Assembly (NCBI GenBank): GCA_015233115.1
Contig: JADFYJ010000002.1
Span: 38,016-102,015 of the forward strand
Origin: Candidatus Omnitrophota bacterium
GTDB lineage: Bacteria > Omnitrophota > Gorgyraeia > Zapsychrales > Zapsychraceae
Direction of reading: 5' to 3'
Length of the DNA: 64,000 bases
Shown here: piece after piece, positions 3,023 to 64,000 of the stretch
Layout: each line of letters opens with the position of its first letter
Numbering within the stretch: position 1 is the first letter of the stretch
The notes under the pieces: model-generated
What the model saw: only the letters and a program-made list of their open reading frames with translations
Database searches by the model: none
What the model was told of the DNA's origin: nothing
Program-made: the position numbers and the translations under genes

Positions 3023-3035
3023 TCTTAATCTTGTC

Positions 3036-3117
3036 GTAGGGGCGATCTCCCGATCGCCCGCATAAAAATTATTAAAATTTTATATTTAATCGGACAGGTC
3101 GGGGACCAGTCCCTACG
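3036..3117. repeat. degenerate copy of GC-rich palindromic MITE-like element (family A)
   Basis: gtaggggcgatctcccgatcgcccgc, then an AT-rich spacer, then gtcggggaccagtccctacg. The left TIR is identical to those of the elements at ~4098 and ~38326. Confidence 0.55.
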
Positions 3118-4097: not shown

Positions 4098-4227
4098 GTA
4101 GGGGCGATCTCCCGATCGCCCGCTTACAAAATATTCGCTTTTTTATTTCAATAAAACAAACAAAAAAACCTGAAATGTTAAATTTATAAATCTTTTATAG
4201 TGCGGGCGATCGGGAGATCGCCCCTAC
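4098..4227. mobile_element. MITE-like element, family A (~130 bp, 26-bp perfect terminal inverted repeats)
   Basis: gtaggggcgatctcccgatcgcccgc, then an ~80-bp AT-rich core, then gcgggcgatcgggagatcgcccctac. About 90% identical to the copy at ~38326-38468. Each TIR is itself internally palindromic. Confidence 0.7.
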
Positions 4228-4247
4228 TACAGCGTCATTATTTACTC

Positions 4248-5170: not shown

Positions 5171-5398
5171 GTCACAAGGACACAAAGTCACAAGGTCACA
5201 AATAAAAATAAAAGTACAAAATAAAAAAACGACTGGTAAGCAGTTAACACCGAAGATAACTCAAACTGGTGATAAAATTTTGTTACATGTTTGACAAGTT
5301 ATGACTTTGCGTATATTTTTTTTGGCATTATTATTCGTTTTTTCCGAATCTTTTCTATCCTTTGTGACCTTGTGACCTTGTGACTTTGTGACTTTGTC
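5171..5398. repeat. IR-flanked intergenic element, family B (TIRs are tandem gtcacaaR octamers)
   Basis: Left arm ggtcacaaggacacaaagtcacaaggtcacaa. Right arm cctttgtgaccttgtgaccttgtgactttgtgactttgtc. About 160-bp AT-rich core. The right arm supplies the stop codon of the large REC-domain gene. Confidence 0.6.
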
Positions 5399-8300: not shown

Positions 8301-8832
8301 TATTCATCGGCAGTTCAGTCACGCCGTATTTTTGAGCAGCTTCTTTATAAACTTTTTCCCAAAATTTTTTACCTAATTCATCTTCCGGGTACATTAAAGA
8401 CGCGGTTAATTGCTTAAGAATGTAATCCTGGCTTAAAAGATCGCGGCCCATTTCTGTCTGGCCGAAATCCTGCGCAATAATGCGGTTATTTTCATAGGGC
8501 GACAAGTTGACCCATTGGTTATTTTCAGGGACAGTTAAAGAAGCCAAGAAATATTTGACTAATTTTTTATATTCATCTTCCTGTATGGAACCGGTTAAAG
8601 GCTTATCTCCGGCTTCAATAAGGAATTTCATCTGCAAAGGATTTTTGGTGTCAATTTCAATACCGCGCACTAAAGCAGGATTAAATACAGCGGATGATTT
8701 GACCATAGTTCCAGCTGGAGGCATGAACATAGCAACCTGCGCCATAGCCCGGGACTGGAAACACGAAGTCCAACCAAAGGTTATAATAAGAAAACTACAA
8801 ATAAATTTGAATAACAAAGTTTTTTTATACAT
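5398..8832 (-). CDS. large (~1144 aa) signal-peptide/TM-anchored protein with C-terminal response-regulator receiver (REC) domain
   Basis: The track ORF extends to 9015. The likely start is MYKKTLLFKF at ~8832, preceded by GGGGG. N-terminal hydrophobic segment, ~900 aa without a motif I recognise, then KVLVVDDNQFTRELYE...LLFSDYNM...SIIISAN...KIDGLVSKL (REC). Confidence 0.5.
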   Translation of the reverse strand: MYKKTLLFKFICSFLIITFGWTSCFQSRAMAQVAMFMPPAGTMVKSSAVFNPALVRGIEIDTKNPLQMKFLIEAGDKPLTGSIQEDEYKKLVKYFLASLTVPENNQWVNLSPYENNRIIAQDFGQTEMGRDLLSQDYILKQLTASLMYPEDELGKKFWEKVYKEAAQKYGVTELPMNTFNKVWIVPQKAVVYEKDNVAWIVDSSLKVMLDKDYVALQKNKNNEAISANQMQASELDQSSTVTTQVVREIIIPALEKEVNSGEHFALLRQIYQSMILAAWYKRTLKQSLLGKIYADKTKVKGVDLTDKEANQKIYEQYLEAFKKGVYDYIKEEYDPTSQQVIPRKYFSGGVIGKMDNALLVKREDSLTARERELLEIYGTKRTIDEVGISLDRQRSRISQKPNGLELITRYSKMFESSGEEPRIQTELNALIPNEADRAMLEEILKTNDPELVRESVRKQLSEEPLAVVRTVLFSLDGMIIGACLAIDQESKKSEGKFVKDAQNKNKYYTFEQILNSPQLLSTAIAQHINETYQKNENKDDDFIIRALDKGINFNRTTRILAVLILFSAMNFFLYEGLTGRNPGRDIKKAASSLVRFMKTEGHNFVNHMAGVQDNKKLINELQTALNNGANKENEREIRAFINFLLKHPKVEVFFDLSANGRNVISGLVTDAKGKTDVEGTDLLRPVIQAGIFNDNAMLTAAPLKEGELAEAFKVLMRSPKAISGILESQVEFEIHIAGLDYNSAEEKQEQAVLAVAKRLREAKDKGEKIIVNYKTFNYGENPEDTEDLTLFGYMVVEEIVRLLEQDQAMLGKKGAFTPIKDETVKTLVDEVNKYLKPMVAAEAAKTGNVVALADATDSQIRAALIMQGGSSYISIGNIQKRLDSPEGKNLDSDSNVKFFMAIAEMTFKYIKATTAPKTPWLIGPKLAAAGAADRAMKVLVVDDNQFTRELYEMVLKDRGYEVVLASSPEEAEKIISDGAFKPELLFSDYNMKNKTGVQMIESIRKIPGMDAVKSIIISANAYTDEVKLAVSRAKIDGLVSKLDGINAIYAAVDPIAALFVQKKNESDSAQLKRDDVGGIDLNAAMLNMQIKRDGNGVPLPVEMQDINSIKIDGLSPYIIDIKPIAPSSLPIFSELMNDKAGSKA

Positions 8833-8942
8833 ATTTTTGCCCCCTTCTATAATAATCGGCCTACACTGAAAATATATACTATATTTGGAGAAAAACAAGA
8901 GCTGTAGGAAGATTATAAGAAAGCGGTTACAATAAAAAGTTA

Positions 8943-8973
8943 TAAAGGTGGTAAAGGTATAAAGGTGATAAAG
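8943..8973. repeat. tandem nonamer repeat (taaaggtgR x3.5), family G
   Basis: ataaaggtggtaaaggtataaaggtgataaagg. The reverse complement recurs at ~61366-61395. Confidence 0.4.
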
Positions 8974-8983
8974 GAAAATAAAA

Positions 8984-9030
8984 CTAAAAATAAAAAAGCC
9001 GCAGGTTGTGAACAATTATCCAACCTGCGG
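8984..9030 (-). terminator. rho-independent terminator downstream of the SET/speH-like operon
   Basis: Perfect 10-bp stem ccgcaggttg/caacctgcgg, followed on the minus strand by cttttttatttttag. Confidence 0.5.
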
Positions 9031-12034: not shown

Positions 12035-12069
12035 CTTTGTTACTCTGTTACTCTGTCACTCTGTTACTT
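12035..12069. repeat. solo arm of family C repeat (tandem gttactcN heptamers)
   Basis: ctttgttactctgttactctgtcactctgttactt, preceded by cccatcaatcgctttt as at ~14651. Overlaps the radC stop codon. Confidence 0.5.
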
Positions 12070-12755
12070 TATAACAATCCTTCATCCGCAAAACTGAAGT
12101 ACTTTTCTTCGGCAATAATGATATGGTCCAGAATTTTAACTTGGAGAGTCTCTCCTGCCATTTTAAGGCGCTCAGTAAAAACTTTGTCTTGTCTACTCGG
12201 AGTAGGATCGCCTGACGGGTGATTATGCGCGCAAATAACTGATGACGCGAAACACTCCATGGCTTTTTTATATATTTCACGAATAATAGGATTAACCTGA
12301 TTCACTGTTCCGGTTTGCTCTTCGCAAATATTTAAAATCCGGTTTTGGCTATCCAGATAAATAGTTTTAAAAATTTCAATTTTTAGATGACACACCTGTG
12401 GATAAATAATTTCAAATATTTGCTGTGATGATGAGATTTTAATTTTGTTATCCTGCCGCTCAACTTCCAAAAACCTGCGGCCGATTTCAATAGCCGCTTT
12501 AATCTGGGCTAATTTGGCCGGACCAATGCCTTTTATTTCTGTCCACTCTTTAACTGTCGCGCAACTCATATTACGGAAGGTTTTGAAGCGATCTAGTATG
12601 CTCCGGGATAAATCCAGCGCGGATTGCCCCCTAACACCTGTCCTCAATAAAATAGCCAAAAGTTCAGAACTTGATAGATTCTTTTCGCCGTATTTCGATA
12701 ATTTTTCCCGCGGACGGTCGTCAACAGGCCATTGATTAATTGGATAAACAGACAT
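12069..12755 (-). CDS. radC: RadC-like JAB-domain protein
   Basis: HNHPSGDPTPSRQDKVFTERL (JAMM/RadC motif). N-terminal helix-hairpin-helix-like region. Confidence 0.8.
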   Translation of the reverse strand: MSVYPINQWPVDDRPREKLSKYGEKNLSSSELLAILLRTGVRGQSALDLSRSILDRFKTFRNMSCATVKEWTEIKGIGPAKLAQIKAAIEIGRRFLEVERQDNKIKISSSQQIFEIIYPQVCHLKIEIFKTIYLDSQNRILNICEEQTGTVNQVNPIIREIYKKAMECFASSVICAHNHPSGDPTPSRQDKVFTERLKMAGETLQVKILDHIIIAEEKYFSFADEGLL

Positions 12756-12827
12756 ACTTCTCCCTTGTAATTCTAGGGAAGTATCTTGGTGGGGAAATGT
12801 GAGGAAAATTAATTATATCAAGTGAAA

Positions 12828-12981
12828 GGTCAGAAGTCAAACGTCAGACGATAAATAAGGGATGTGGGGCAAAAACGATTGCGTGAAAAACGATAATTTT
12901 GTTGCGGGAGATCAGGAGATCTCCCCTACGAAAAAAACGAATATCTTATTTCGCCTTTAAACTATTTTCCCTTTGTGACCT
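12828..12981. repeat. composite of repeat fragments (family B-like arms flanking a family A right TIR)
   Basis: ggtcagaagtcaaacgtcagacg ... gcgggagatcaggagatctcccctacg ... cctttgtgacc. Confidence 0.45.
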
Positions 12982-13006
12982 AAATAAGTTGGTTTCACAT
13001 ATACGA

Positions 13007-13309
13007 TTAGGTGAAAAAAATAACATATAACAAAATTAAAACAGCCACACCCATGGCCATATAAAAACGGTTATAATATATCAAATCCTGAATACGTTCT
13101 TGGGCGGAATATTCATACTGTACTGTTTCAACTTTAACAGAACCAACATTTTTTAAGTCCAAGACTTCTTCGTGCTTCAAACGCAAAAATTTATTCGCGA
13201 TTTTATATGCCTGTAATTTGCGTTCTTCAATCAGATCCATGACCTTGCGCTCGGTGACACCTAGCAATTGCGCGCTTTCCCGGACTGAAATATATTGAGG
13301 ACTATTCAT
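13007..13309 (-). CDS. excisionase/MerR-type HTH protein with C-terminal TM anchor
   Basis: The likely start is MNSPQYISVRESAQLLGVTERKVMDLIEERKL (HTH_17-like). C-terminal hydrophobic helix MAMGVAVLILLYVIFF. The track ORF begins earlier, at 13342. Confidence 0.45.
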   Translation of the reverse strand: MNSPQYISVRESAQLLGVTERKVMDLIEERKLQAYKIANKFLRLKHEEVLDLKNVGSVKVETVQYEYSAQERIQDLIYYNRFYMAMGVAVLILLYVIFFT

Positions 13310-13859: not shown

Positions 13860-14312
13860 TTATTGATGACTTTTATGTTTTTCTTTAAGTTTTGTTTCGA
13901 ACGGTTTAATTAAAATCAAAACAGAAGCCACGGCCGCCGTAATAAACATCGCCGTTTGATACATGCCGCATCCGACGGCAATACCTATTCCGGCTACAAT
14001 CCATAATGATGCCGCAGTGGTCAGCCCCATCACATGCGAATCACCCCGGAAAATCGCCCCGCCGCATAAAAAACCTATACCAGTAATAATTCCCGTGATA
14101 ATCCGGGCCGGATCCCCTTTAGTTGTCCCATTGTATATATCAGAAAGGTAAAAGGAAGTCAATACGAGGAGTGTCGTACTGACTCCGACCAAGATATGAG
14201 TGCGCAAACCCGCGTCTTTGAATTTCAGTTCGCGTTCTATTCCGATGACTCCGGACAAGAACATAATCAATCCCACCTTAGACATCACCTGCAAAATAGG
14301 CATTTCCGTCAT
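13860..14312 (-). CDS. mgtC: MgtC/SapB family membrane protein
   Basis: LIMFLSGVIGIERE..AGLRTHILVGVSTTLL is typical of the MgtC N-terminal domain. Confidence 0.65.
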   Translation of the reverse strand: MTEMPILQVMSKVGLIMFLSGVIGIERELKFKDAGLRTHILVGVSTTLLVLTSFYLSDIYNGTTKGDPARIITGIITGIGFLCGGAIFRGDSHVMGLTTAASLWIVAGIGIAVGCGMYQTAMFITAAVASVLILIKPFETKLKEKHKSHQ

Positions 14313-14324
14313 TGGTAACCTCCC

Positions 14325-14697
14325 TTATAGTAACCGAGTAACAAAGTAACAGAGCAAAAGCAAAAAACTATTGGTTTAAAAAACATAAAACCAAAAAGCC
14401 AGATTAACCGAATAACAAAGAAACCGAGCGAAAGTAGAAAACGATTGGTTTAAAACATACAAAACAAAAAAATCATAACTAAAAATTAATTTGAAAAAAT
14501 CAAATAAAGTAACATAAAAATCGTATTGAAAAACTTTGATAAAACAACTCGTAAACATCACTGTCTTTTATCTTTTAAAACCAATATTCCCATTCGTATT
14601 TAAATTTTTTCACCAATCTTTTTTTTCGCTGCCACTTTGACACGTTTTGTTTTTCACCCATCGCTTTTACTCTGTTACTCGGTTACTCGGTCACTTT
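14325..14697. mobile_element. IR-flanked element, family C (~370 bp)
   Basis: Left arm agtaaccgagtaacaaagtaacagag. Right arm ctctgttactcggttactcggtcact. Internal direct repeats aacNattggtttaaaa(a)cataNaaaac. The right arm encodes the last 6 codons and stop of tsaD. Confidence 0.6.
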
Positions 14698-15649
14698 TAA
14701 AATAGTATGCCAATCCCGCCACCATGGCCGCATTGTCTGTGCACAAGATCATGGGCGGAAAAAATACTTTAATCCCGCGCGTCTTTGCCTCTTCCGTCAA
14801 ATGATGACGCAAACACGAGTTAGCCGCAACGCCGCCGCCGATCACAATCGCCTTATTTTTTGTCTTTAAACACGCGTCAATGGTTTTACGAGTTATCACT
14901 TCAATAATACTTTCCTGAAATGAAAAAGCAAGGTCTGCTTTATTAAAATCAGGATCATGGCTGTGAGCTTTCAAATAATACAAAACCGCGGTCTTGATCC
15001 CGCTGAAACTAAAATCAAAACTATCCGGAAATGCCGCGCACTTTAAAGGGATACGTTGACCTTTGGACTGCTTTGCCAATTTATCAATCAAAGGGCCGCC
15101 CGGATATCCCAGCTCAAGAATCTTGGCCACTTTATCAAAGGCTTCGCCGACCGCATCGTCGCGCGACTGGCCCAGTAACTTAAAATTTTTAAAATCCTTA
15201 ATCTGGTAAATATTGGAATGCCCGCCGGAAACAACTAACCCGATACACGGCAAATCAGGGATTTCTTGCTTTTGTCCTTTAAAGGTAAGAAAATTCGCGT
15301 ATAAATGCGCCTTAATATGATCAATCAGAATAAGCGGTTTATTTAAGGCCAAACTTAAACCTTGGGCAAATGAGATGCCAACTAAAAGCGAGCCGATCAA
15401 ACCCGGATGCGAGGTCACGCTGAACGCGTCAATATCCGTCCAACGCAAACCAGCCTGCGACAAGCTTTCCTGTACCACGATATTAATGAATTCCAACTGG
15501 CGGCGGGAAGCGATCTCCGGAATCACTCCTCCGTACTTGGCGTGATCTTTAAGACTGGATGCTATCACGTTGGAATGGATTATTCTTCCATCTTCAACGA
15601 TCGAACATCCAGTCTCATCACACGAAGTTTCAATGCCTAAAATATACAT
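14675..15649 (-). CDS. tsaD: tRNA N6-adenosine threonylcarbamoyltransferase
   Basis: MYILGIETSCDETGCSIV N-terminus plus Kae1/TsaD family sequence throughout. Confidence 0.9.
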   Translation of the reverse strand: MYILGIETSCDETGCSIVEDGRIIHSNVIASSLKDHAKYGGVIPEIASRRQLEFINIVVQESLSQAGLRWTDIDAFSVTSHPGLIGSLLVGISFAQGLSLALNKPLILIDHIKAHLYANFLTFKGQKQEIPDLPCIGLVVSGGHSNIYQIKDFKNFKLLGQSRDDAVGEAFDKVAKILELGYPGGPLIDKLAKQSKGQRIPLKCAAFPDSFDFSFSGIKTAVLYYLKAHSHDPDFNKADLAFSFQESIIEVITRKTIDACLKTKNKAIVIGGGVAANSCLRHHLTEEAKTRGIKVFFPPMILCTDNAAMVAGLAYYFKSDRVTE

Positions 15650-22408: not shown

Positions 22409-23349
22409 GAGGATAATTCAAATGCCAGTTTAATTGCTTCACACATTGACGCCGGATCCGCCATATTTTTCCCGGCAATATCAAATGCGGTTCCGTGCGC
22501 GGTTGATGTCCGGATAAACGGCAGACCAATCGTCAAATTAACCAGATTAGGAAAAAATAAAGCTTTAATCGGACCTAAACCTTGATCATGGTACAAAGAA
22601 ATAATCGCGTCATATTTTTTCGCGTTATGAGGCACAAACAACGTATCCGCGGCAAACGGACCGCAAATTTTCATTTTTTGTTTTTGAGCCGCTAAGATAG
22701 CCGGCAAAACCACCTTAATATCTTCCTTGCCAATCCGTCCGCCTTCACCCGCATGCGGATTCAAACCGCAAACCGCGATTTGCGGATCTTTAATCTTAAA
22801 CATACTCTTAAGAATATGATGAGTCATGGCAATGGTCCCGCCTAAATTTTTCCTGGTTACTGCCGTCGGCACTTGTGACAAAGGAATATGCCGCGTCGCA
22901 ATAATCACCCGCCATGTTCCAGCTACAAAAAGCATTTCCACATTCTTCACGCCAAAAGCTTCCGCTAAATATTCCGTATGTCCATGGAATCCGGGTAGAC
23001 TAAAAGAAACCCATTCTTTACTCAAGGGCCCAGTCACCAGCGCATCAATTTTTTTGGCTTGAATCAATTCAACACTGGTTTTTAAATATTCCAACGATGC
23101 TTGACCACTCTCCAAAGATGGCTTCCCCAATTTCCATTTATTTTTAGGCAATAAATTCACGTCTAAAAAAGTACAATTTTTCAAATTGCGGATCGGAAAA
23201 TGTTCCATCACAAAATAATCACCGATAATAACAAAATGGCCAAGCCGCTGAATATCCGGCCGGCTCAAAGCTTGGGCGGTTATCTCCGGGCCAACGCCGC
23301 AGGGATCGCCTAACGTGATTCCGATAATTTTATTTTTTGATTTCAACAT
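22405..23349 (-). CDS. pdxA: 4-hydroxythreonine-4-phosphate dehydrogenase
   Basis: IGITLGDPCGVGPEI and PdxA family sequence throughout. Classic surA-pdxA-ksgA arrangement. Confidence 0.85.
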   Translation of the reverse strand: MLKSKNKIIGITLGDPCGVGPEITAQALSRPDIQRLGHFVIIGDYFVMEHFPIRNLKNCTFLDVNLLPKNKWKLGKPSLESGQASLEYLKTSVELIQAKKIDALVTGPLSKEWVSFSLPGFHGHTEYLAEAFGVKNVEMLFVAGTWRVIIATRHIPLSQVPTAVTRKNLGGTIAMTHHILKSMFKIKDPQIAVCGLNPHAGEGGRIGKEDIKVVLPAILAAQKQKMKICGPFAADTLFVPHNAKKYDAIISLYHDQGLGPIKALFFPNLVNLTIGLPFIRTSTAHGTAFDIAGKNMADPASMCEAIKLAFELSS

Positions 23350-24265
23350 ACGTTTTCGCTTTTAATTTCAGTAACCATTTTTCAAACTTTTCTTTAAATT
23401 TTCGGCGGTAAACCACTTCATAGGCAAAATTTTTCACATCTTCATACGCCGCTATTTTTTCCGGCGAATGTCCTAGCAATTTAAAAATAAAATACCCATT
23501 TTCAACTTCAAATATGTCAGACGTCTCATCCATTTTAAGGGCCAATAATTTTGTTTCAATATCATCCCTTAATTGGCCGCGCTCAATCGTGCCAATGGAC
23601 GGCGTATCTGAATAATCCGCAGCAATCTTTTTAAAATCATCCCCTTTTTTGACTCTATCCAACGCCGCTTCAATCTTTTTCCGGGCCGCTTGTTTATTCG
23701 TGCCGAAAGCGATGTAAATCGAATCTAAACTTAACGATTCTTTGCGTTTAAATTGATCTTTGTTAGATGAAAAAAAATCTTCAACTTCTTTTGGGTTTAC
23801 GGTAATTTTTTCCCTTATTTCATTATCTATTATATATTTAATCTTTAGCTGATCTCGAATTTTATGGCGTAAATCTGTTAAATTGGACCCATTACTGACC
23901 AGATCCGTCATAAAATCCGCTTCTGAACGGTACTGAGATTTTAACTGATCAACCCGCTCATCTACTCCAGATTCTCGTATTTCCATTTTCTTTTCATTGG
24001 CATAACTCAAAATGATTTTATCTTCAATCATTTTTTCAATCCCATTCGCTTCCAAATCCTTCATCACCGCATCAATCTGCCGGGGATCCATACCATCCGC
24101 TACTAAACTGACATAGGTTGAATGTAGATAATCTTTAAGATCTTTCATGGTGATCAACTCTTTATTGACCACCGCGACAATCGCGTCATCCACCGCCTGA
24201 GCAGACGAAACCCAACCTCCTAGCAAAAATAAAATAACAAAAAAATATTTAAAAAAAGTTTTCAT
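23330..24265 (-). CDS. periplasmic chaperone/peptidyl-prolyl isomerase, SurA/PrsA-like
   Basis: Signal peptide, SurA-N-like region, degenerate parvulin domain. Conserved position upstream of pdxA. Confidence 0.6.
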   Translation of the reverse strand: MKTFFKYFFVILFLLGGWVSSAQAVDDAIVAVVNKELITMKDLKDYLHSTYVSLVADGMDPRQIDAVMKDLEANGIEKMIEDKIILSYANEKKMEIRESGVDERVDQLKSQYRSEADFMTDLVSNGSNLTDLRHKIRDQLKIKYIIDNEIREKITVNPKEVEDFFSSNKDQFKRKESLSLDSIYIAFGTNKQAARKKIEAALDRVKKGDDFKKIAADYSDTPSIGTIERGQLRDDIETKLLALKMDETSDIFEVENGYFIFKLLGHSPEKIAAYEDVKNFAYEVVYRRKFKEKFEKWLLKLKAKTYVEIKK

Positions 24266-24291: not shown

Positions 24292-24450
24292 ACGTATATA
24301 GTATGTGGTATGTGGTATGTGGTATATCGTAAAAACGAGAATTAATAATTTTGATCAAACGACAAAAAAAACGTATTTTATTCCTAATAAATTCTTAATT
24401 TGTCTCACCAATCGTTTTTCACCACATACGACATACCACATACTACATGC
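24292..24450. repeat. IR-flanked element, family D (TIRs are tandem gtatgtR heptamers), empty copy
   Basis: Left arm gtatgtggtatgtggtatgtggtat. Right arm accacatacgacataccacatactacatg. About 95-bp AT-rich core. The right arm supplies the mfd stop and last codon. Confidence 0.6.
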
Positions 24451-26341
24451 CATTTTTATTAATTGTAACGTTTTTCTTCAAGTTTTCCACCGATTCTTTT
24501 AATAATCGGCAGTACAAATCAAACCCTATGCTGGCAATATATCCATGCTGTTCCTGTCCCAAAAGATTCCCCGCTCCCCTCAATTGCATATCTTCAAACG
24601 CAATCTTAAACCCTGCTCCTAATTCACTGTATTTTTCGATCGCGTCAATTCTCGCTTGGCTTTCCTGGCTTAATGATTTATAGGCCGGGATCAAAAAATA
24701 AGCATAGGCTTCGCGAGTGAATCTTCCAACGCGCCCGCGTAATTGATGCAAATCAGCCAAGCCAAAGTGATCAGCCCGGTTAATAATTAGCGTATTAGCA
24801 TTAGGAATATCTATTCCTGATTCGATAATAGTGGTCGAAACCAAAACATCAATCGAGCCATCTAAAAATTGCAGCATAATTTTTTCCAAATCACGCGCGG
24901 ACATTTGCCCATGCCCAATGGCTATCCTCGCTTGCGGGACCAAACGTTTGATGATTGCTCCTATGTGCGCAATATCTTCCACCCGGTTATGAATAAAAAA
25001 CATCTGCCCATGCCGTTTTAATTCCCTTTCAATAGCTTCTTTAATTAAATCTTCGTCAAATTCTCGGACAAACGTTTTAACCGGTAGACGTTTTTGCGGC
25101 GGCGTTGTGATCACAGACATATCTTTTGCCCCGACTAAAGACATATGCAAGGTTCGCGGAATAGGAGTCGCGCTTAATGTCAACACATCAGCCAAAAGGC
25201 GGAAATGTTTGAGCCGTTCTTTAGCCTTAACTCCAAAACGCTGTTCCTCATCAATAATAATCAATCCCAAATCTTTAAACGCGATATCTTTGGACAAAAG
25301 CCGGTGCGTCCCAATGACGACGTCAACCTGGCCATCCGCTAATTCAATAACCGTTTTTTGCTGTTCAGCTTTAGTCCTAAAACGGCTCAACATAGCCACG
25401 CGAACTGGATATTTTTCCATGCGTTTGACAAAATTATAATAATGCTGTTCCGCTAAAATCGTGGTTGGAACCAAAATGGCGACTTGTTTGTGGTCCATCA
25501 CGGCTTTAAAAACCGCCCGCATCGCTACTTCGGTTTTTCCAAAACCGACATCCCCGCACAGAAGCCGGTCCATGGGCAGTTCAGACTCCATATCTTTTTT
25601 AACATCCGTTATGGCTTTTTTTTGATCATCCGTCTCTTCAAAAGGAAAACCTTTTTCAAAATCTTTTTGCCATGGAGTATCAAGAGAAAATGAATGTCCA
25701 CGCAAACTGGCACGCATAGCTTGAGTATGCAATAATTCCGCCGCCATTCTCTGCAAACGTTTTTGAATCTGTTGTTTAAGCCTTTTCCATTCCGGACTGC
25801 CGAGTTTATAAATCCGCGGCGGCCGTTTGTTAAAACTTAAGTATTTTTGAATCAGATGAATATCATGTTTGGGGACGAATAATTTATCTCCTCCCTGATA
25901 CTCAATAACAAAATGTTCTTTAACTTCATCACGGATCTCAATGGTTTGCAAACCGATGAAGCGGCCAATACCGTGATAATTATGGACAACATAATCGCCT
26001 TTTTGAATATCGACAAAATTATTAAGAGGAACGTCTTCAGAAAAAACCGCATTTTTGTTTTCAGGTTTATGAGGCAGGATAATCGCGATCTTGTGTTCCC
26101 AGATCACCTTACCGGAACGGATATTGACACTGGCAATTTTTTGGATCTTCTCATCATCAAAATCAACTCGGATAGGACCGTCAAAATTGACGGGATATAT
26201 TTGCAGAATTTCACCGTGGTGGGCATACTCGCCTTCCTTTAAGGCGTGCCGCACATGCTGGTAATGCATGGCCGCCAAATTGTTGAGGACAATATCCAGG
26301 GCAATCGTCTGTCCAACGAAAAGTTCGAGTGATTGGAACAT
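24443..26341 (-). CDS. mfd: transcription-repair coupling factor, short form lacking UvrB-homology module
   Basis: CarD/TRCF RNAP-interaction domain (GDYVVHNYHGIGRF). SF2 helicase motifs (GDVGFGKTEVAMRA, DEEQRFGV). C-terminal TRCF domain. 632 aa, with only 44 nt to the upstream gene. Confidence 0.8.
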   Translation of the reverse strand: MFQSLELFVGQTIALDIVLNNLAAMHYQHVRHALKEGEYAHHGEILQIYPVNFDGPIRVDFDDEKIQKIASVNIRSGKVIWEHKIAIILPHKPENKNAVFSEDVPLNNFVDIQKGDYVVHNYHGIGRFIGLQTIEIRDEVKEHFVIEYQGGDKLFVPKHDIHLIQKYLSFNKRPPRIYKLGSPEWKRLKQQIQKRLQRMAAELLHTQAMRASLRGHSFSLDTPWQKDFEKGFPFEETDDQKKAITDVKKDMESELPMDRLLCGDVGFGKTEVAMRAVFKAVMDHKQVAILVPTTILAEQHYYNFVKRMEKYPVRVAMLSRFRTKAEQQKTVIELADGQVDVVIGTHRLLSKDIAFKDLGLIIIDEEQRFGVKAKERLKHFRLLADVLTLSATPIPRTLHMSLVGAKDMSVITTPPQKRLPVKTFVREFDEDLIKEAIERELKRHGQMFFIHNRVEDIAHIGAIIKRLVPQARIAIGHGQMSARDLEKIMLQFLDGSIDVLVSTTIIESGIDIPNANTLIINRADHFGLADLHQLRGRVGRFTREAYAYFLIPAYKSLSQESQARIDAIEKYSELGAGFKIAFEDMQLRGAGNLLGQEQHGYIASIGFDLYCRLLKESVENLKKNVTINKNGM

Positions 26342-34517: not shown

Positions 34518-35243
34518 CTACCTTATTTCCTGAGTCGCTTTCTTTAAATCAATCTTTCCTTCATAAATCGCCTTGCCTGTAATCGCACCAACCACACCCT
34601 TAAGCTCCAATGTTTTAATTTGTTTCAGGTCTTCGAGCGATGATACGCCGCCTGAAGCAATAATATTGACATGTTGAACACTTTCAGCTATAGCTTCCAA
34701 TGCGGCCATATTCGGGCCAGTCATCATTCCGTCGCGGGCGATATCTGTAAATATAATCCATTTAACACCGATTTGTTCTAATTCTTTGGCAAAAACAGTC
34801 GCTTTAACATCGGATGTGCTAACCCACCCATGCTGAGCCACCATTCCATTATGACAATCCAGGCTCACCGCGATTTTGTCTCCCCAGATGCCAACGATTT
34901 CTTTTAAAAAATTTAAGTCCTGAATAACCTTTGTTCCTAAAATCACCCGGCTCACTCCGCCGTCGATCAAACTTTTAATATCTTCTTTGGTGCGGATTCC
35001 TCCGCCCATCTCAATTGGTATTTTTACAGTCCGGGCGATTTGCAAAATAATATTTTTATTCCGGATCACTCCATCTTTAGCGCCATCTAAGTCCACAATA
35101 TGCAGCCACTCGGCGCCTTCAGTTTCCCAAAAACGCGCCATGACCACTGGGTCACGACCATATTCTGTTACCTGGTCAAACTTGCCTTGAACCAACCGAA
35201 CAACTTTGCCGTCTTTAATATCTATTGCGGGAAAAATGATCAT
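34518..35243 (-). CDS. hisA: ProFAR isomerase
   Basis: [20 protein letters not shown]. Confidence 0.9.
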
Positions 35244-35839
35244 ATTTTTATAAAATTTTCTAAAATTTTTATACCGATTGCCTGGCTTTTTTCCGGGTGA
35301 AATTGTACGCCAAACACATTGTGACTACACATTGATGAACAATAATCAATCCCGTAATTCGTTGTGGCCGCAACAATGGTTTCATCATTTGGTTTGACAT
35401 AATATGAGTGACACAAATATACGTTCGAACTGTTTGGCACATCCTTAAATAAAACACAATCTTTTTGCTGTATCTGAATTTGATTCCAGCCCATTTGCGG
35501 CACTTTTAACTGGGTGAATTTTTCAACTGTCCCTTTAAAAATGCCCAATCCTTTGACTTCTCCGCCTTCATAACTGGTTTCGAACAACAACTGAAAACCT
35601 AGACAGATACCTAAAAACGACTTACCACTTTTAATCGCATTCTTAATAACCGATATTAAACCAAGTTCAGTTAACTTGTCCATGGCTGGACGCATAGCCC
35701 CAACACCCGGAAGAACAATTTTCTTCGCGTTTTCAATATCTGAAATATTTTGGGTCACTATGGCAGCCGAACCGGCTTTTTCAAAAGCCTTCTGCACACT
35801 GCGCAAGTTCCCCATTCCATAATCGATAATGGCAATCAT
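35240..35839 (-). CDS. hisH: imidazole glycerol phosphate synthase, glutamine amidotransferase subunit
   Basis: MIAIIDYGMGNLRSVQKA and a GICLGFQ catalytic Cys. Confidence 0.9.
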   Translation of the reverse strand: MIAIIDYGMGNLRSVQKAFEKAGSAAIVTQNISDIENAKKIVLPGVGAMRPAMDKLTELGLISVIKNAIKSGKSFLGICLGFQLLFETSYEGGEVKGLGIFKGTVEKFTQLKVPQMGWNQIQIQQKDCVLFKDVPNSSNVYLCHSYYVKPNDETIVAATTNYGIDYCSSMCSHNVFGVQFHPEKSQAIGIKILENFIKI

Positions 35840-35866: not shown

Positions 35867-36002
35867 GTATGTCGTACGTAGTATGTGGTATGTAGCGAAA
35901 AAAATCAAAATAATATTTTTAAAAAACTGGATTCCCACCTTCGCGGGAATGACAAGTCTAATCGTTTTTCGCTCTACATACGCATACCACATACTACATA
36001 CC
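35867..36002. repeat. IR-flanked element, family D, empty copy between hisH and hisB
   Basis: Left arm gtatgtcgtacgtagtatgtggtatgtagc. Right arm ctctacatacgcataccacatactacatacc. Internal attccc-acct-tcgc-gggaat hairpin. Confidence 0.6.
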
Positions 36003-36007
36003 ATTTT

Positions 36008-36619
36008 TTAATCAATTATTCCCTTCGTCGACGGGATCATATTGGGTCTGGAGGGATTGATACGGGTCGCTTCATGTAAAGCCAGACCCAAAGCCTTAAA
36101 AGCGGCTTCCATATTTGTATGCAGATCTTCGCTGGTTCCCTCGATCTTGACATTGATCGTCGCGCCAAGGTTATGCGCAAAAGATTCGAGGAAATGTTCC
36201 AGGTAAGCCATGGCGTAGCCATCTTCATTCTTAATATTAACTTTTTCCAAATTATCAATAACCAGGGTTAAATATCCCCGACCGCTGATATCCACAACTG
36301 CGCGGCCCAACGTCGATTCCATAGGCGCGAACGCGGAACCAAAACGTTTGATGCCTTGCATGTCGCCTAAAGCTTTTTTAAATAATTTACCCAGCACAAT
36401 TCCAATATCTTCATTGGTGTGATGAATATCAATTTCCAAATCAGCTTTTTTAACTGCCAAGTCTAAATCAAAACACGCGTGAAAAGCGAAAAGGTCCAAC
36501 ATATGATCTAACAAACCAATGTTAGTTTTAACTTGAGTCTTCCCTTGCCCGTCGATATTCAACGATGCAATAATCTCAGTTTCTTTGCTTTTTCTCTCAA
36601 TCTGTGCTGTTCGATTCAT
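36008..36619 (-). CDS. hisB: imidazoleglycerol-phosphate dehydratase
   Basis: RTAQIERKSKETEI...HH..ED IGPD motifs. 203 aa, monofunctional. Confidence 0.9.
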   Translation of the reverse strand: MNRTAQIERKSKETEIIASLNIDGQGKTQVKTNIGLLDHMLDLFAFHACFDLDLAVKKADLEIDIHHTNEDIGIVLGKLFKKALGDMQGIKRFGSAFAPMESTLGRAVVDISGRGYLTLVIDNLEKVNIKNEDGYAMAYLEHFLESFAHNLGATINVKIEGTSEDLHTNMEAAFKALGLALHEATRINPSRPNMIPSTKGIID

Positions 36620-36637
36620 ATGTTTTGTCCTATAAAA

Positions 36638-37073
36638 GTATGTGGTATGTAGTATGTCGTATGTAGTAAAAACTACAATTTTTTAATCAAAGCCTTTGTC
36701 ATTTTAGATACAGATTCGAGATCTTGCAATATCGGTTTCGATAATTCAGATTTTAAAAAACCTAATTCTACTGAAATTATAACCTGTGTTTCTAACTCAG
36801 CAACTGAACCCATAACAATATATAAAAACTGTCGATTTTTTTATTATGATATCTTCTAAAACCTTCTGCGATATTTGATGGTATCGAGATGGCTGCCCTT
36901 CGCATTTGAGATACTAATCCAAACTGTTCTTCTTGAGGATAATTTTTTGTGACTTTATAAATATTTTTTACTATTTCAACACCAAACTTCCAAATTCTTA
37001 AATCCTGATAAGTTGTTATCTTTTCGTCCATTGCTTTCCCACCACATACGACATACCACATACTACATACTAT
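36638..37073. mobile_element. IR-flanked element, family D, loaded copy carrying a four-helix-bundle protein gene
   Basis: Left arm gtatgtggtatgtagtatgtcgtatgtagta. Right arm accacatacgacataccacatactacatact. Same TIR family as the empty copies at ~24292 and ~35867. Confidence 0.6.
36680..37061 (-). pseudogene. four-helix-bundle protein (23S rRNA intervening-sequence protein family), frameshifted
   Basis: The track ORF 36792-37061 ends at ...AISIPSNIAEGFRRYHNKKIDSFYILLWVQLLS. The +2 frame continues QFLYIVMGSVAELETQVIISVELGFL...KMTKALIKKL, which is the conserved C-terminal half (GSxxELETQ). A single-nucleotide indel lies in the aaaaaaatcgacagttttt tract. Confidence 0.7.
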
Positions 37074-37075
37074 TT

Positions 37076-38299
37076 TTACTTAAATCTCACTTTAATCGAT
37101 TCTGAATGTTTATTTAAGCCTTCCAAAGTCGCAATTTGGATTATAGCATCTTTTACTTTGTCCAAAGCCTTTTTTGAATAAGAAATCACGTGGCTTTTTT
37201 TGACAAAATGATCTGTTCCTAAACCGGAAAAATATTTGGCTGAACCCATGGTAGGAAGAACATGACTGGGGCCTGCCGCGTAATCGCCCAAAGCTGTCGG
37301 GCTATAAGGCCCTAAAAATATTGCCCCAGCATTCACAATCTTCTTGGCAATCACATTCGGGTTGTTAGTCATAATTTCCAAATGTTCCGGCGCGATCTTG
37401 TTCGCGATTTCAATAGCTTCGTCCATATTTTTGGCATAAACCCCATATCCGGATGGAACACGGTTGCGTAATTGCTTTAATAATTGTTTTGACGTAGAAA
37501 TTAAAACTGCCAACCCTCCTAAATGTTCAATCTGCCCTTCCATATCTGCCGCGACAAAATCCGGATTAGAGCAGCGGTTAGCAATAATCGCTAATTCAGA
37601 CGGGCCGGCTAACATATCAATATCGACAAACCCAAAAACCTGTCGCTTGGCTTCAGTCACATAAATATTTCCCGGCCCAACCACTTTATGGACGCGGGGA
37701 ACAGTTTTTGTGCCAAGAGCCAACGCCGCAATCGCCTGAGCTCCGCCCACTTTGTATATCTCATTAACCTTCAACAAATTCGCGACCGCCAAAACGTATG
37801 GATTCACCTGACCATTTTTATTCGGCGGAGTCATGATGACAATCCGTTTAACGCCAGCTACCTTAGCCGGGATCACAGTCATGTATACGGTTGATACCAA
37901 GGGCGCGGTTCCTGCCGGAATATAAATGCCCACAGATTCCAGAGGCTGAATTGTTTCTTTTAAAATAACCCCTTCGTCAGCTTTCACAAAACACGGTCGT
38001 TGTCTTTGTGTTTTATAAAAAGTCGTCACATTTTTGATGATCATCTTCAAATTATCAACGAAATCATTGGTGATATTCTGAAACGCGGCGCTGATTTCAC
38101 CTTCAGGCACGCGCAGATCTTTGGCGGTTAATTTAACGCCGTCAAATTTCTTCGTGTATTTCAAAACCGCCTCGTCGCCATCTAACCTGACATCTTCAAT
38201 AATTTGGCGCACTTTATCGCTGACACTTTTTTTGTGCACCTGCGAATCACGATTATAAATATCCAGTAAACTTTTGCCGGTCTGTGTTAATATTTTCAT
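37076..38299 (-). CDS. hisD: histidinol dehydrogenase
   Basis: 407 aa, HisD family sequence throughout (VGPGNIYV, GPSHVLPT). Confidence 0.9.
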   Translation of the reverse strand: MKILTQTGKSLLDIYNRDSQVHKKSVSDKVRQIIEDVRLDGDEAVLKYTKKFDGVKLTAKDLRVPEGEISAAFQNITNDFVDNLKMIIKNVTTFYKTQRQRPCFVKADEGVILKETIQPLESVGIYIPAGTAPLVSTVYMTVIPAKVAGVKRIVIMTPPNKNGQVNPYVLAVANLLKVNEIYKVGGAQAIAALALGTKTVPRVHKVVGPGNIYVTEAKRQVFGFVDIDMLAGPSELAIIANRCSNPDFVAADMEGQIEHLGGLAVLISTSKQLLKQLRNRVPSGYGVYAKNMDEAIEIANKIAPEHLEIMTNNPNVIAKKIVNAGAIFLGPYSPTALGDYAAGPSHVLPTMGSAKYFSGLGTDHFVKKSHVISYSKKALDKVKDAIIQIATLEGLNKHSESIKVRFK

Positions 38300-38325
38300 T
38301 GTCTTGGAAATCCTTGTAAAGTGTT

Positions 38326-38468
38326 GTAGGGGCGATCTCCCGATCGCCCGCTTACAAAATATACGCTTTTTTATCTAGATAAAACAAACAAAAAAACTAA
38401 ACCTAAAAACCCTGGAATGTTAAATTTGTAAATCTTTTTGGTACGGGCGATCAGGAGATCGCCCCTAC
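38326..38468. mobile_element. MITE-like element, family A (~143 bp, 26-bp TIRs)
   Basis: gtaggggcgatctcccgatcgcccgc, then an AT-rich core, then gtacgggcgatcaggagatcgcccctac. Sibling of the copy at ~4098. Confidence 0.7.
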
Positions 38469-38475
38469 GACCAAG

Positions 38476-57517: not shown

Positions 57518-57586
57518 TTCATTTGGAATATTTGGTTTTTAATTTTTAACACCAATCATTTTTTTGACTTTATGACTTTACGTTTT

Positions 57587-58706: not shown

Positions 58707-58790
58707 GTTATCCTTTTGAAAGTAACCGAGTAACAGAGTAGCAGAGAAACAAAGCAAAAAAATAAAGTATCTAAAAACCAACCACTATTT
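58707..58790. repeat. solo left arm of family C repeat
   Basis: agtaaccgagtaacagagtagcagagaaacaaagcaaaaaa, which matches agtaaccgagtaacaaagtaacagagcaaaagcaaaaaa at 14331. Confidence 0.55.
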
Positions 58791-61365: not shown

Positions 61366-61395
61366 TCCTTTACCACCTTTATACCCTTACCACCT
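61366..61395. repeat. family G tandem nonamer repeat (reverse complement of the 8943 copy)
   Basis: cctttaccacctttatacccttaccaccttta. Overlaps the uvrA stop and the last codons. Confidence 0.4.
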
Positions 61396-64000
61396 TTAGC
61401 ACTTTTTTCAAATACTGTCCTGTATAAGATTTCGGACATTGCGCGACTTCTTCAGGTGTTCCGGTCGCCATGACTTCCCCACCTCGATCTCCGCCTTCCG
61501 GACCGAGATCAATAATATAATCGGCATTTTTAACTACATCCAAATTGTGCTCGATAATTAAAACTGTATTTCCCAGCCCAACTAACCTTTGCAGGACCTC
61601 CAATAATTTTTCTACGTCCGCGAAATGCAAACCTGTGGTTGGCTCATCTAAAATATAAAACGTCTGCCCGGTCGAATGCTTACATAATTCGCTGGCCAGC
61701 TTAACCCGCTGGGCTTCTCCGCCGGATAAGGTGGTCGCGCTCTGACCGAGTTTAATATACCCTAAACCCACATCATTCAAAGTTTCCAGAACCCGTCGTA
61801 TCTTAGGAACATTTTCAAATATAGCAAGACCTTCCGTCACCGATGTATTAAGGATATCATTAATGTTTTTCCCTTTAAACTGAACTTCCAAAGTCTGATC
61901 ATTAAACCGGCGGCCGCCGCACACTTCGCATTGAACATAAACATCCGGCAAAAAATGCATCTCAATTTTTTTAATTCCGTCGCCGTTACATGCTTCGCAC
62001 CGCCCCCCTTTGACATTAAAACTGAAACGTCCCGGTTTATATCCCCGCAATTTTGATTCGGGCATCATGGTAAAAACATTACGGATATGGTCAAAAACAC
62101 CGGTGTAAGTGGCTGGATTGGAGCGCGGGGTCCGTCCGATCGGCGACTGGTCCACTACAATAAATTTATCAATCCATTCCATGCCGGTTATTTTCTTTAC
62201 CTTGCCTGGCTGGTCTTTTGACCCATAAAATTTCTGCGCAAGTGATTTATGAATAATATCATCCACCAACGTCGATTTTCCAGAACCGGATACTCCGGTA
62301 ATACACGTAAAAGTTCCTAAAGGAATCGATAGATTAATATCTTTAAGATTATGTTCCGCTGCCCCCAATATTTTTAATTGTTTCTTTGGATCAATCGGGC
62401 GCCGTGTAGCAGGAGTTGAAATAAATTTTTTACCGCTTAAATACTGGCCAGTCAAAGAAGTTTCCGATTTCAGCAAAGCAGGAACATCTCCTTCAAAGAT
62501 AATCTCGCCTCCAAATTCACCGGCACCCGGACCTAGGTCAATCACATGATCAGAACGACGAATGGTTTCTTCATCATGCTCAACCACGATCAAACTATTG
62601 CCCATATCCCGCAAGGCATGCAAAGTTGATAATAAACGGTCATTATCCCGTTGGTGCAAACCAATACTCGGTTCATCCAAAATATATATCACGCCAACCA
62701 GCCCTGACCCCACTTGAGTAGCTAAACGGATCCGTTCTGCTTCCCCGCCTGATAATGTACCGCTCCGACGGTCTAAGGTTAAATAGTCAAGCCCAACATT
62801 AATGCAAAAATCCAAACGGCGGATGATCTCTTTTAAAATCTGAGCGCTGATAATCTGCTGATCTTTGGTCAGCTTTAGTTCCTGGAAAAATTTTTTCGCT
62901 TCCTTGATTGAAAGCTGAGATACTTCCGAAATATTCTTATCATTAATTCTAACCGCCAAAGATTCTTTTTTTAAACGAGCGCCGCCGCAAGAAGGACATG
63001 GCTTTAAGGACATATACTGGCTAATTTCGTCCTGCAGCCATTCACTGTCAGTATCCTGAAACATCCGTTCCAGATAACGTAAAATACCCTCAAATTGCCT
63101 GCCCCAGATTTCATCATCTGAACCGTGCAATATAATTTTCTTAAACGCCGGTTTCAAATCTTGATATGGAGTATAAGGATCAAACCCATGCAATCCGGCA
63201 ATTTCCCGCATCACAGCACGGTAATACATTAAATAATTACGCCGGCCCCGTTTCGAGGGCGCGATCGCGTTGATCCAGGGCTTGGTTTCATCTGGAATTA
63301 AAATATCCGGATCGATTTCCATGCGCGTGCCTAACCCGTTACAGGTCGGACAAGCACCGTAAGGAGAATTAAATGAAAAGGTACGCGGTTCGATCTCCAC
63401 AATACTAATCCCACAGTCGACACAGGCAAAATGTTCACTAAAAATTCGATCAGCCAGCTTACCTTGTTCTTCGACGGACACAATAATCAACCCCTTGCCC
63501 GCGTCCAAAGCAGTTTCAATCGAATCAGTCAGACGCTTGCGGGTTTCAGGTTTTATCGTGATGCGGTCAACAACTACTTCAATATTATGGACTTTAAATT
63601 TGTCCATCTTAATTTCATCTTCAGTTGTGTATATCTGCCCGTCTACCCGCAAACGTGAATAACCCGCTTTCGTGACCTCAGAAGCAATCTTGCGATATTC
63701 CCCTTTGCGTCCACGAATTAAAGGCGCCAAAATAACAATCTTGGTTCCTTCTTTATAGGAAAATAATTGTTCCACAATTTCTTGTGAATGCTGACGCTCG
63801 ATTTTTTTACCGCAATTCGGGCAATACGCTGTCCCGATACGCGCGAATAATAAACGCAGATAATCATTAATCTCAGTCTGAGTCGCTACGGTAGAACGGG
63901 GATTCTTACTGGTGGTCTTTTGTTCGATGGAAATTGTCGGAGATAATCCGTCAATAGATTCAATATTCGGTTTCTGCAATTGTTCCAAAAACTGCCGGGC
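61379..64000 (-). CDS. uvrA: excinuclease ABC subunit A (C-terminal ~870 aa; N-terminus beyond window end)
   Basis: Zn-finger CPNCG, ABC signatures LSGGEAERIRLA and LSGGEAQRVKLA, Walker A GVSGSGKSTL. The track assigns the start to an in-frame TTG; the gene runs off the window. Confidence 0.95.
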   Translation of the reverse strand, partial: ARQFLEQLQKPNIESIDGLSPTISIEQKTTSKNPRSTVATQTEINDYLRLLFARIGTAYCPNCGKKIERQHSQEIVEQLFSYKEGTKIVILAPLIRGRKGEYRKIASEVTKAGYSRLRVDGQIYTTEDEIKMDKFKVHNIEVVVDRITIKPETRKRLTDSIETALDAGKGLIIVSVEEQGKLADRIFSEHFACVDCGISIVEIEPRTFSFNSPYGACPTCNGLGTRMEIDPDILIPDETKPWINAIAPSKRGRRNYLMYYRAVMREIAGLHGFDPYTPYQDLKPAFKKIILHGSDDEIWGRQFEGILRYLERMFQDTDSEWLQDEISQYMSLKPCPSCGGARLKKESLAVRINDKNISEVSQLSIKEAKKFFQELKLTKDQQIISAQILKEIIRRLDFCINVGLDYLTLDRRSGTLSGGEAERIRLATQVGSGLVGVIYILDEPSIGLHQRDNDRLLSTLHALRDMGNSLIVVEHDEETIRRSDHVIDLGPGAGEFGGEIIFEGDVPALLKSETSLTGQYLSGKKFISTPATRRPIDPKKQLKILGAAEHNLKDINLSIPLGTFTCITGVSGSGKSTLVDDIIHKSLAQKFYGSKDQPGKVKKITGMEWIDKFIVVDQSPIGRTPRSNPATYTGVFDHIRNVFTMMPESKLRGYKPGRFSFNVKGGRCEACNGDGIKKIEMHFLPDVYVQCEVCGGRRFNDQTLEVQFKGKNINDILNTSVTEGLAIFENVPKIRRVLETLNDVGLGYIKLGQSATTLSGGEAQRVKLASELCKHSTGQTFYILDEPTTGLHFADVEKLLEVLQRLVGLGNTVLIIEHNLDVVKNADYIIDLGPEGGDRGGEVMATGTPEEVAQCPKSYTGQYLKKVLKVVRV

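Follow-up and report, generated by a model that had tools for sequence, protein, structure and literature searches.

Intervening sequences (IVSs) in the 23S ribosomal RNA (rRNA) of Leptospira, Coxiella burnetii and Xanthomonas are inserted into helix 25 or 45 and carry, in the loop of a stem, an open reading frame (ORF) of the PF05635 family that is read in the sense of the host transcript (Warrier et al. 2016, PMC4990558). Here we describe an element of similar design that lies in a protein-coding operon. It was found in a stretch of 64,000 nt, hereafter the window, from a metagenome-assembled genome (MAG) of a Candidatus Omnitrophota bacterium (GCA_015233115.1, JADFYJ010000002.1, positions 38,016-102,015 of the forward strand), and consists of inverted arrays of four to five NGTATGT heptamers around a promoterless four-helix-bundle (4HB) gene in the spacer between hisD and hisB. 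We favour, with moderate confidence, the explanation that this locus is an IVS-type hairpin cassette.

The IVS of Coxiella is a 428-nt element in helix 45 with an inverted-repeat stem and the S23p ORF in its loop. Directly upstream of this ORF stand three to four tandem heptamers (GACAGAT), the number of which varies between strains, and RNase III cuts the element at the first repeat (PMC4990558). According to the citations given in the same article, Ralph and McClelland proposed in 1993 a mobile nature of the IVS, with the ORF acting in its movement, and Lin et al. (2006) described XCC0516 (2GSC) as a ring of five four-helix bundles (both cited in PMC4990558). In the searchable open-access literature, PF05635 proteins are called functionally uncharacterised. 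The window element shares with the rRNA IVSs a PF05635 ORF in a stem loop, in the sense of the host transcript, and with the Coxiella IVS the presence of tandem heptamers; the IVSs have been proposed to be selfish or mobile (PMC4990558), and the window unit is likewise mobile on an evolutionary scale. It differs in its site, which is an operon spacer instead of a helix of 23S rRNA. A first-pass annotation of this DNA had taken the link between the 4HB gene and a mobile element to be undescribed. That was too broad, in that the mobility of rRNA IVSs (1993) and the Coxiella heptamers are on record, as far as they are recounted in PMC4990558. An IVS with this ORF and with heptamers was therefore already known, whereas the operon-spacer form outside rRNA is new in the sense that we could not find it described: extra-ribosomal 4HB genes bracketed by inverted heptamer arrays, the generality of this arrangement, its period-7 rule and its GT core do not appear in the searchable literature.

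Arrays with a period of 7 have also been reported from other settings. In marine Beggiatoaceae, TAACTGA repeats form direct heptamer arrays between genes, with one inverted case in 170 sets (Beggiatoa genome, PMC4679880). These repeats and the cyanobacterial STRR repeats resemble the window arrays in their period, their intergenic position near start codons, their lineage specificity and their occurrence in several phyla, but they are direct-repeat arrays with no associated gene. The Correia elements of Neisseria and the ERIC, RUP and REP/BIME repeats are short, have inverted ends, occur between genes in many copies and are co-transcribed to give long RNA stems, those of the Correia elements being substrates of RNase III. 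Compared with this last group, the window element has ends made of tandem 7-nt arrays in which only a core of 2-3 nt is conserved, shows no visible target-site duplication, and in its loaded form regularly contains the gene of a small protein.

Two further systems bear on how such arrays might be read. The omega/ParB protein of plasmid pSM19035 occupies at least four contiguous 7-bp units, direct or inverted, each of which is read by one protein unit (PMC9499535). Like the window arrays, its sites are contiguous units with a period of 7, showing that such arrays can be protein-binding lattices; unlike them, they have a fixed unit (WATCACW), are read by a protein with a ribbon-helix-helix fold and serve plasmid partition and repression. 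The Avd proteins of diversity-generating retroelements (DGRs; bAvd, PF22296/NF033474) have a four-helix-bundle fold homologous to that of the window protein, form a pentameric ring and act with nucleic acid and a reverse transcriptase. The window protein, after repair of its reading frame as described below, scores under the Avd-specific cut-offs (24.7 against 40 bits for PF22296 and 25 against 80 bits for NF033474), and hisD and hisB adjoin its gene, leaving no room for an adjacent reverse transcriptase; template/variable repeats were not seen beside it either, though no search was aimed at them.

The 4HB cassette and two ORF-less hairpins in the window

Searching the window for GTATGTRGTATGTRGTATGT with up to three mismatches returned 12 matches, against 0.02 expected from shuffled sequence, and every match fell within one of three loci (24294-24327/24424-24450, 35867-35893/35982-36001 and 36638-36664/37044-37070), where the first-pass annotation had placed the inverted heptamer arrays. 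Its unit, GTATGTR, needs to be widened to GTATGTN: the GTATGT repeat holds, and position 7 is G, A or C. All six arms have a period of 7 and 3.6-4.6 copies (Tandem Repeats Finder), are 28-34 nt long and pair with a complementarity of 82-95%. One pair of arrays encloses the 4HB gene, while the other two pairs enclose unrelated cores of 80-95 nt. The elements measure 135-435 bp; the 4HB gene is the sole ORF inside any of them, and none contains an internal transposase gene.

The loaded cassette fits exactly into the spacer between hisD (histidinol dehydrogenase, 37076-38299) and hisB (imidazoleglycerol-phosphate dehydratase, 36008-36619), on the his-coding strand, which is the minus strand, as for all features of the three loci and the genes around them. 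Its 5' arm (37041-37070), with about 4.3 tandem NGTATGT units, begins 5 nt past the hisD stop codon, and its 3' arm (36637-36668), with ACATACN units on the sense strand, stops 18 nt ahead of the hisB start, so that the AGGA ribosome-binding site is left free. RNA folds were computed for the his-sense strand and compared with dinucleotide shuffles. In the fold of the loaded element the ends pair in a stem of about 40 bp with the ORF in the loop, at -111 kcal/mol against -81 kcal/mol for the shuffles (z = -5.35). A promoter of the cassette's own was not apparent, the promoter-like matches in the region being not above those in shuffled sequence.

The 4HB gene (36673-37031) starts with an ATG at 37031, loses its frame in a run of seven A residues (36836-36842, T7 on the plus strand) and resumes in another frame up to a stop at 36673. 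As sequenced it therefore consists of two ORF pieces of 89 and 46 amino acids in place of the intact frame of about 115-130 codons expected in this family. The run is one base short of an intact frame, and the addition of one A yields a single protein of 119 codons, in agreement with the single-base frameshift in an A/T homopolymer that had been proposed before. The repaired protein matches PF05635 at 2.2e-35 (121.5 bits, cut-off 33.8; model positions 1-105 of 106) and TIGR02436 at 1.5e-33 (115.2 bits, cut-off 24), which bears out its earlier assignment to the 23S rRNA IVS protein family, and reaches 137.9 bits with NF008911, barely over the cut-off of 137. Its nearest solved structure is XCC0516 (2GSC, 1.5e-22). 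There are 4259 homologues, the best about 63% identical; the majority are exactly 119 amino acids long, which is the modal length, and their consensus runs continuously across the repair site (RRYHNKEYKQFLY versus RRYHNKKNRQFLY).

The frame break is either a pseudogenising deletion, in which case the window copy is a fresh pseudogene, or an error made in sequencing the homopolymer. We do not read it as a programmed frameshift, since the KKN codons that make up the run are peculiar to the window copy, the consensus at this place being NKEYK. Among 4HB genes the pairwise ratio of nonsynonymous to synonymous substitution (dN/dS) is 0.10-0.19, indicating that the protein is under purifying selection and functional. 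In syntenic pairs of loci the 4HB gene has 88-91% nucleotide identity and its flanks 72-87%, the flanking host genes of L152/L169, L141/L193, L149/L154, L151/L155 and L167/L175 having 72-83%; this higher conservation of the gene fits strong constraint or homogenisation between copies. A six-frame phmmer search found no second 4HB copy or remnant in the window, and a scan with the 4HB alignment found no 4HB relatives among viral contigs.

Of the two ORF-less hairpins, one separates hisB from hisH (glutamine amidotransferase subunit, 35240-35839), after which follow hisA, hisF and hisI; its 5' arm lies at 35974-36001 and its 3' arm at 35867-35895. The other stands between an Mfd-like gene (24443-26341) and a SurA-like gene (23330-24265), with its 5' arm at 24421-24452 and its 3' arm at 24294-24327. 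Both fold as long hairpins (z = -7.55 and -8.43). The identities given to these neighbours by the first-pass annotation hold, those of hisD, hisB and hisH by orthology to annotated relatives (orthologues of hisB carry PF00475). As it had also observed, two elements sit inside the his operon without separating it, the his genes all lying on one strand. Common to all three copies are the arms and an outer AAAAATRG on the sense strand, which abuts the upstream stop codon, and the two ORF-less copies have in common an inner GAAAAACGATTRG of about 12 nt. The inner motif GAAAAACGATTGGT adjoins the 5' arm at 24407-24420 and recurs at 35957-35970; with up to two mismatches it is also found beside octamer arrays at 5224, 14362, 14436 and 14612. 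Rfam gave no known RNA family at the element loci, the whole 64-kb window containing only one tRNA and no rRNA.

Each of the ORF-less elements shows a peculiarity in relation to its neighbours. The core of the hisB/hisH hairpin holds a terminator-like GC hairpin followed by a T run (35931-35950, his-sense strand), a consensus match only, which also appears as an inner stem in the fold of the element and could attenuate read-through into hisH. The stop codon of the Mfd-like ORF is a TAG within the first heptamer of its element (24443-24452), and the insertion thus supplied or replaced the last codons of this gene.

Spread, arm unit and mobility of the heptamer-array elements

Scanning one genome per species with the pattern (GTATGTN)2GTATGT gave at least 115 loci, so that GTATGT arrays, paired or solo and with or without a 4HB gene, occur far beyond the window, as the first-pass annotation had anticipated. 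The hosts listed comprise Omnitrophota, Sedimentisphaerales, Pirellulales, Bacteroidales, Flavobacteriia, Peregrinibacteria, other groups of the candidate phyla radiation (CPR), and more. Among the matches listed, 15 are paired with an inverted array no more than 1.5 kb away. A 4HB gene is enclosed at two of these 15, namely L013 from Sedimentisphaerales, whose protein matches that of the window at E = 6e-42, and L079 from Bacteroidales, and the remaining inverted pairs are hairpins with loops of 5-100 nt. A 4HB gene adjoins the array in only about 6 of the 115 GTATGT-array loci listed, and a solo array is present in the genome of the closest relative (L068; GCA_015233195.1, also the source of locus L135). 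Homologues fetched by protein identity carry other units: CGTGCGT/GATGCGT in L116, GAGTATT in L125, CGAAGAC in L136 and AGTAAGT in L079. In total, 217 related loci were gathered.

Seen from the gene, the association is close to obligate. Metagenome contigs were scanned with an alignment of 32 homologues and 80 loci were analysed, in which 69 4HB genes had 130 nt on both sides and could enter a test for inverted repeats in the flanks; 109 neighbouring genes in the same loci served as controls, and the mean of the shuffle maxima was about 9.7. A score of at least 15, counted as strong, was reached by 46 of the 69 4HB genes (67%) and by 1 of the 109 controls (0.9%), and a score of at least 12 by 59 of the 69 (86%) and by 3 of the 109. 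In Nonlabens, a Deltaproteobacteria MAG and Bacteroidales, arms also accompany more distant 4HB genes, whose products have 27-36% identity with the window protein. Upstream, the closest long ORF runs in the same direction as the 4HB gene in 58 of 62 cases, and downstream in 55 of 64; the median gaps to these neighbours, 61 nt upstream and 43 nt downstream, barely exceed the arms. An ORF-poor, rRNA-like flank was seen at just 1 of the 80 loci, a possible exception; the surveyed 4HB subfamily essentially does not live in rRNA. These results show that the heptamer-array bracket is the normal and specific packaging of the 4HB gene family, at least in this subfamily. The 4HB genes found elsewhere thus share the flank architecture of the window copy, and the gene, which the first-pass annotation had called cargo, is better described as a signature gene of the element.

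The arm unit itself follows a strict pattern. At all 46 loci with strong arms, the best period of the 5' arm is 7 and its consensus unit contains GT, while AC occurs in the unit at 7 of the 46. Phased on GT, the unit logo reads G-T-A(30/46)-N-N-K-M, and arms have a median length of 4.8 units (interquartile range (IQR) 4.0-5.6). Differences within arms and between arms amount to about 29% at phases 3-5 and to 3-7% at the G and the T. Polarity is fixed, with the GT array 5' and the AC array 3' in 46/46 loci; since an inverted repeat is identical on either strand, this rule reflects the polarity of the element itself and does not arise from how the genes were oriented. At two loci (L075 17-99 and L087 7626-7700) the arms are asymmetric, with 7-13 perfect ACCACAT units in the 3' arm and a short, degenerate 5' arm, which suggests that array length changes fast by slippage.

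Comparison of the his region between relatives revealed that the elements occupy different junctions. The window has the loaded cassette at hisD/hisB and a 165-nt ORF-less hairpin at hisB/hisH. In L135 (hisD 89% identical), the hisB/hisH junction reads TAA-3 nt-ATG and unrelated repeats are present at hisD/hisB, and in L136 (hisD 78%) a 4HB cassette with CGAAGAC arms lies between hisH and hisA. All his junctions of L137 (hisD 73%) are element-free, and its mfd and surA genes overlap, whereas in the window they are separated by the third element. The hisD/hisB junction of L136, which in the window holds the loaded cassette, is a 40-nt spacer filled by a solo (AGTACTA)4 array (3317-3356) that may be a footprint or a landing site.

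Across the wider set of loci, four pairs of 4HB genes are 87-92% identical and have the same arm type within dissimilar flanks (L196/L210, L150/L182, L150/L173 and L150/L160). Only L196/L210 had both flanks available and was inspected, and here the alignment sets in where the arms begin on their outer side. Arm type and protein identity are correlated (Spearman -0.39; none of 2000 Mantel permutations was as extreme). The arms of two paralogues that share a Nonlabens contig (50% identity) differ, and one of the two shares its arm type with a 76%-identical orthologue in another Nonlabens genome. Arms and gene thus travel together, and their joint occurrence in unrelated contexts and at different his junctions shows that the unit is evolutionarily mobile. 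In having terminal inverted repeats (TIRs) and a small size, in being present or absent between related genomes and in recurring amid unrelated surroundings, it resembles a miniature inverted-repeat transposable element (MITE). The mobility claimed by the first-pass annotation is accordingly upheld by different junctions in relatives and by near-identical units in unrelated contexts.

Competing explanations of the cassette and its arrays

If the locus is an IVS-type hairpin cassette, it would be transcribed within the his mRNA, and its arms would pair in the RNA to a stem of 35-40 bp that has the ORF in its loop. As in the 23S rRNA IVSs, for which excision by RNase III has been shown, the enzyme would then cut the stem, which would free the small mRNA and part the his cistrons on either side. 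The same would apply to the two ORF-less hairpins, whose arms are the same.

A number of observations weigh against this explanation. Both co-transcription and RNase III cleavage are predictions for this locus, and the Coxiella heptamer GACAGAT is without the GT core of the window heptamers. With mismatches of about 29% at the variable positions of the arms, it is the periodic GT core that is conserved and not perfect pairing, and a plain stem for RNase III does not explain the periodic core, the polarity or the spacer mismatches. G-U and A-C mismatches in the arms, compared as a measure of selection on the sense-strand RNA, numbered 75 and 57 (p = 0.14). Local alignments of the ORF-less cores with the loaded interior and with each other remained at shuffle level. 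The ORF-less loci, previously taken for empty siblings, therefore share arms but not cores with the loaded copy, and its sequence does not support their descent from it; an origin as internal-deletion derivatives found no support in these alignments or in the search for a second 4HB remnant in the window. As to movement, no direct repeat marks a target-site duplication at the three copies, where A/T-rich flanks and fuzzy arm ends limit the test. Nor did hisB/hisH, the junction at which this check could be made against empty orthologous sites (TAA + 0-9 nt + ATG), show any duplicated bases. No recombinase or transposase was found linked to the element, and no autonomous partner turned up in the 217 related loci or in the window, although no search was aimed at one and the window's ORFs were partly screened.

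That the GT core is kept, that polarity is fixed and that mismatches are tolerated suggests that a protein recognises the arrays, and arms of about five units make the pentameric 4HB ring the obvious candidate reader. It is conceivable, if doubtful, that the arrays are putative periodic sites of the 4HB protein itself, in single-stranded RNA, single-stranded DNA or duplex DNA. A gene placed between its own sites would allow autoregulation or self-propagation, and ORF-less and solo arrays would be acted on in trans. This possibility overlaps with the hairpin cassette and could be its missing mechanism. It would account for a GT core present in every unit while 3-4 spacer positions vary freely and are often unpaired, for a GT array that is 5' in 46/46 loci, and for arms with a median of 4.8 units (IQR 4.0-5.6), close to the five subunits of the XCC0516 ring (2GSC, as cited in PMC4990558). 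It would also suit the fact that arm type follows gene lineage and not host, and that arrays outnumber genes, a 4HB gene adjoining about 6 of the 115 array loci listed; a precedent exists in pSM19035 omega/ParB with its 7-bp units (PMC9499535). However, the GTATGT unit also flanks genes from other phyla whose proteins are only 27-36% identical to that of the window, which argues against a tight reading of the variable positions. The same window has arrays of period 8 and 9, and shared descent of arms and gene would yield a correlation between them without recognition.

Taken further, this line of thought would make the 4HB proteins sequence-periodic nucleic-acid binders in which each subunit of the pentamer reads one GT-core heptamer and about five units form one site. 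Gene and arrays would then constitute a self-recognising module that spreads through operon spacers and rRNA helices and leaves ORF-less and solo arrays behind. We entertain such a binder only tentatively, because widely divergent proteins occur together with the GTATGT unit. PF05635/TIGR02436, an orphan family since 1993, is very large and has been treated almost exclusively as a curiosity of rRNA IVSs or as a relative of DGR Avd. At least in the present subfamily, its members normally reside in heptamer-array hairpins within protein-coding operons, and the periodic GT core and the fixed polarity of these hairpins resemble a code for recognition more than a simple stem. If the proteins are indeed binders, a large orphan family would gain a function, and the unit would represent a new protein-guided hairpin element that is neither a transposase-based MITE nor a retroelement. 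The finding offers a common origin for rRNA IVSs and widespread intergenic hairpin repeats, and makes the function of the family testable; the arrays may split or attenuate operon transcripts in uncultivated phyla.

The first-pass annotation had leaned towards a classical MITE, in which the arrays are TIRs moved by a transposase encoded elsewhere and the 4HB gene is a passenger in one copy. The TIRs, the shortness of the elements, their multiple copies per genome, the unrelated cores of the copies without an ORF and presence or absence at orthologous sites would all agree with this, and many MITE families have only their ends in common with their autonomous partners. We nevertheless judge it unlikely. 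Arms at 67-86% of homologues against 1-3% of controls would be unexpected for a passenger, paralogues that share a contig keep their own arm types, and arm sequence varies widely by lineage around a fixed period and GT core, unlike transposase-specific ends; in addition, the copies lack a visible target-site duplication, and a transposase partner did not come to light among the window's other ORFs, as far as these were screened. A MITE with cargo loses ground because the element regularly contains the 4HB gene, while ORF-less copies that share the ends only remain compatible with a MITE-like relationship. Very improbable, in our view, is a local feature that does not move at all, that is, hairpins that process or stabilise operon transcripts and have grown in place by slippage, the 4HB gene being there by chance. 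Solo arrays do exist, the copy number of the Coxiella heptamer differs between strains (PMC4990558), and tandem heptamers, which are prone to slippage, are the commonest repeats of 5-11 nt in many bacterial genomes, according to the background given in PMC4679880. Yet gene and arms recur as a sharp-bordered unit in unrelated contexts, at the place of the window's 165-nt element relatives show nothing but a TAA-ATG junction, and the flanks of 4HB genes contain inverted repeats at a rate of 67% against 0.9% for other genes. The recurrence of the unit and the control genes largely refute this explanation.

Further repeats in the window and in related loci

The design of the heptamer hairpins is repeated in the window with a period of 8. 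Inverted octamer arrays of GTCACAAR (4-4.5 copies; 5171-5225 and 5338-5397) enclose a 112-nt core, with a AAAAAACGACTGGT motif inside, between a gene for the N-terminal subunit of transketolase (4248-5069) and a response-regulator ORF (5398-9015). A second inverted pair, of AGTAACMG (14329-14361 and 14663-14695), lies between an MgtC-family gene and tsaD; its 300-nt core includes a 74-nt tandem duplication (14331-14471) in which array and motif are repeated, and no 4HB remnant was detected there. Solo GT-core arrays with a period of 7, 8 or 9 are found at 12038-12068, 58721-58751, 61367-61406, 57561-57580, 12820-12848 and 8936-8974, directly past stop codons or ahead of start codons, as seen after radC and ahead of an ExbB/MotA-like gene. 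About a dozen intergenic spacers of the 64-kb window contain such arrays.

A second family of repeats is GC-rich and internally palindromic (GTAGGGGCGATCTCCCGATCGCCCGC; 3032-3062, 4098-4123, 4201-4231, 38323-38350 and 38444-38471). Its inverted pairs enclose cores of about 78-93 nt, and copies flank the gene for the C-terminal subunit of transketolase. One pair is located in the alaS-hisD spacer, which brings the repeat elements in or beside the his operon to three.

Operon junctions in the lineage of L135, which comes from the closest relative, are colonised by other small genes too. Between its hisH and hisA stands a gene for DUF559 (Vsr-like endonuclease; 12702-13187), flanked by inverted sequences of the GGGGAGAGGG type, and between hisA and hisF an ORF of 499 amino acids without a Pfam match (13909-15408). 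At L073 (4560-4850), four to five different heptamer arrays of the ACGAACC-, CGTCCAT-, TAGTCTN- and ACATACN-types adjoin in one Omnitrophota spacer. The arrays appear to break short-read assemblies, since many of the 120 best homologues are known just from contigs shorter than 2 kb; at L101 (about 6180-6240), a run of N starts within the 3' arm of a 4HB cassette.

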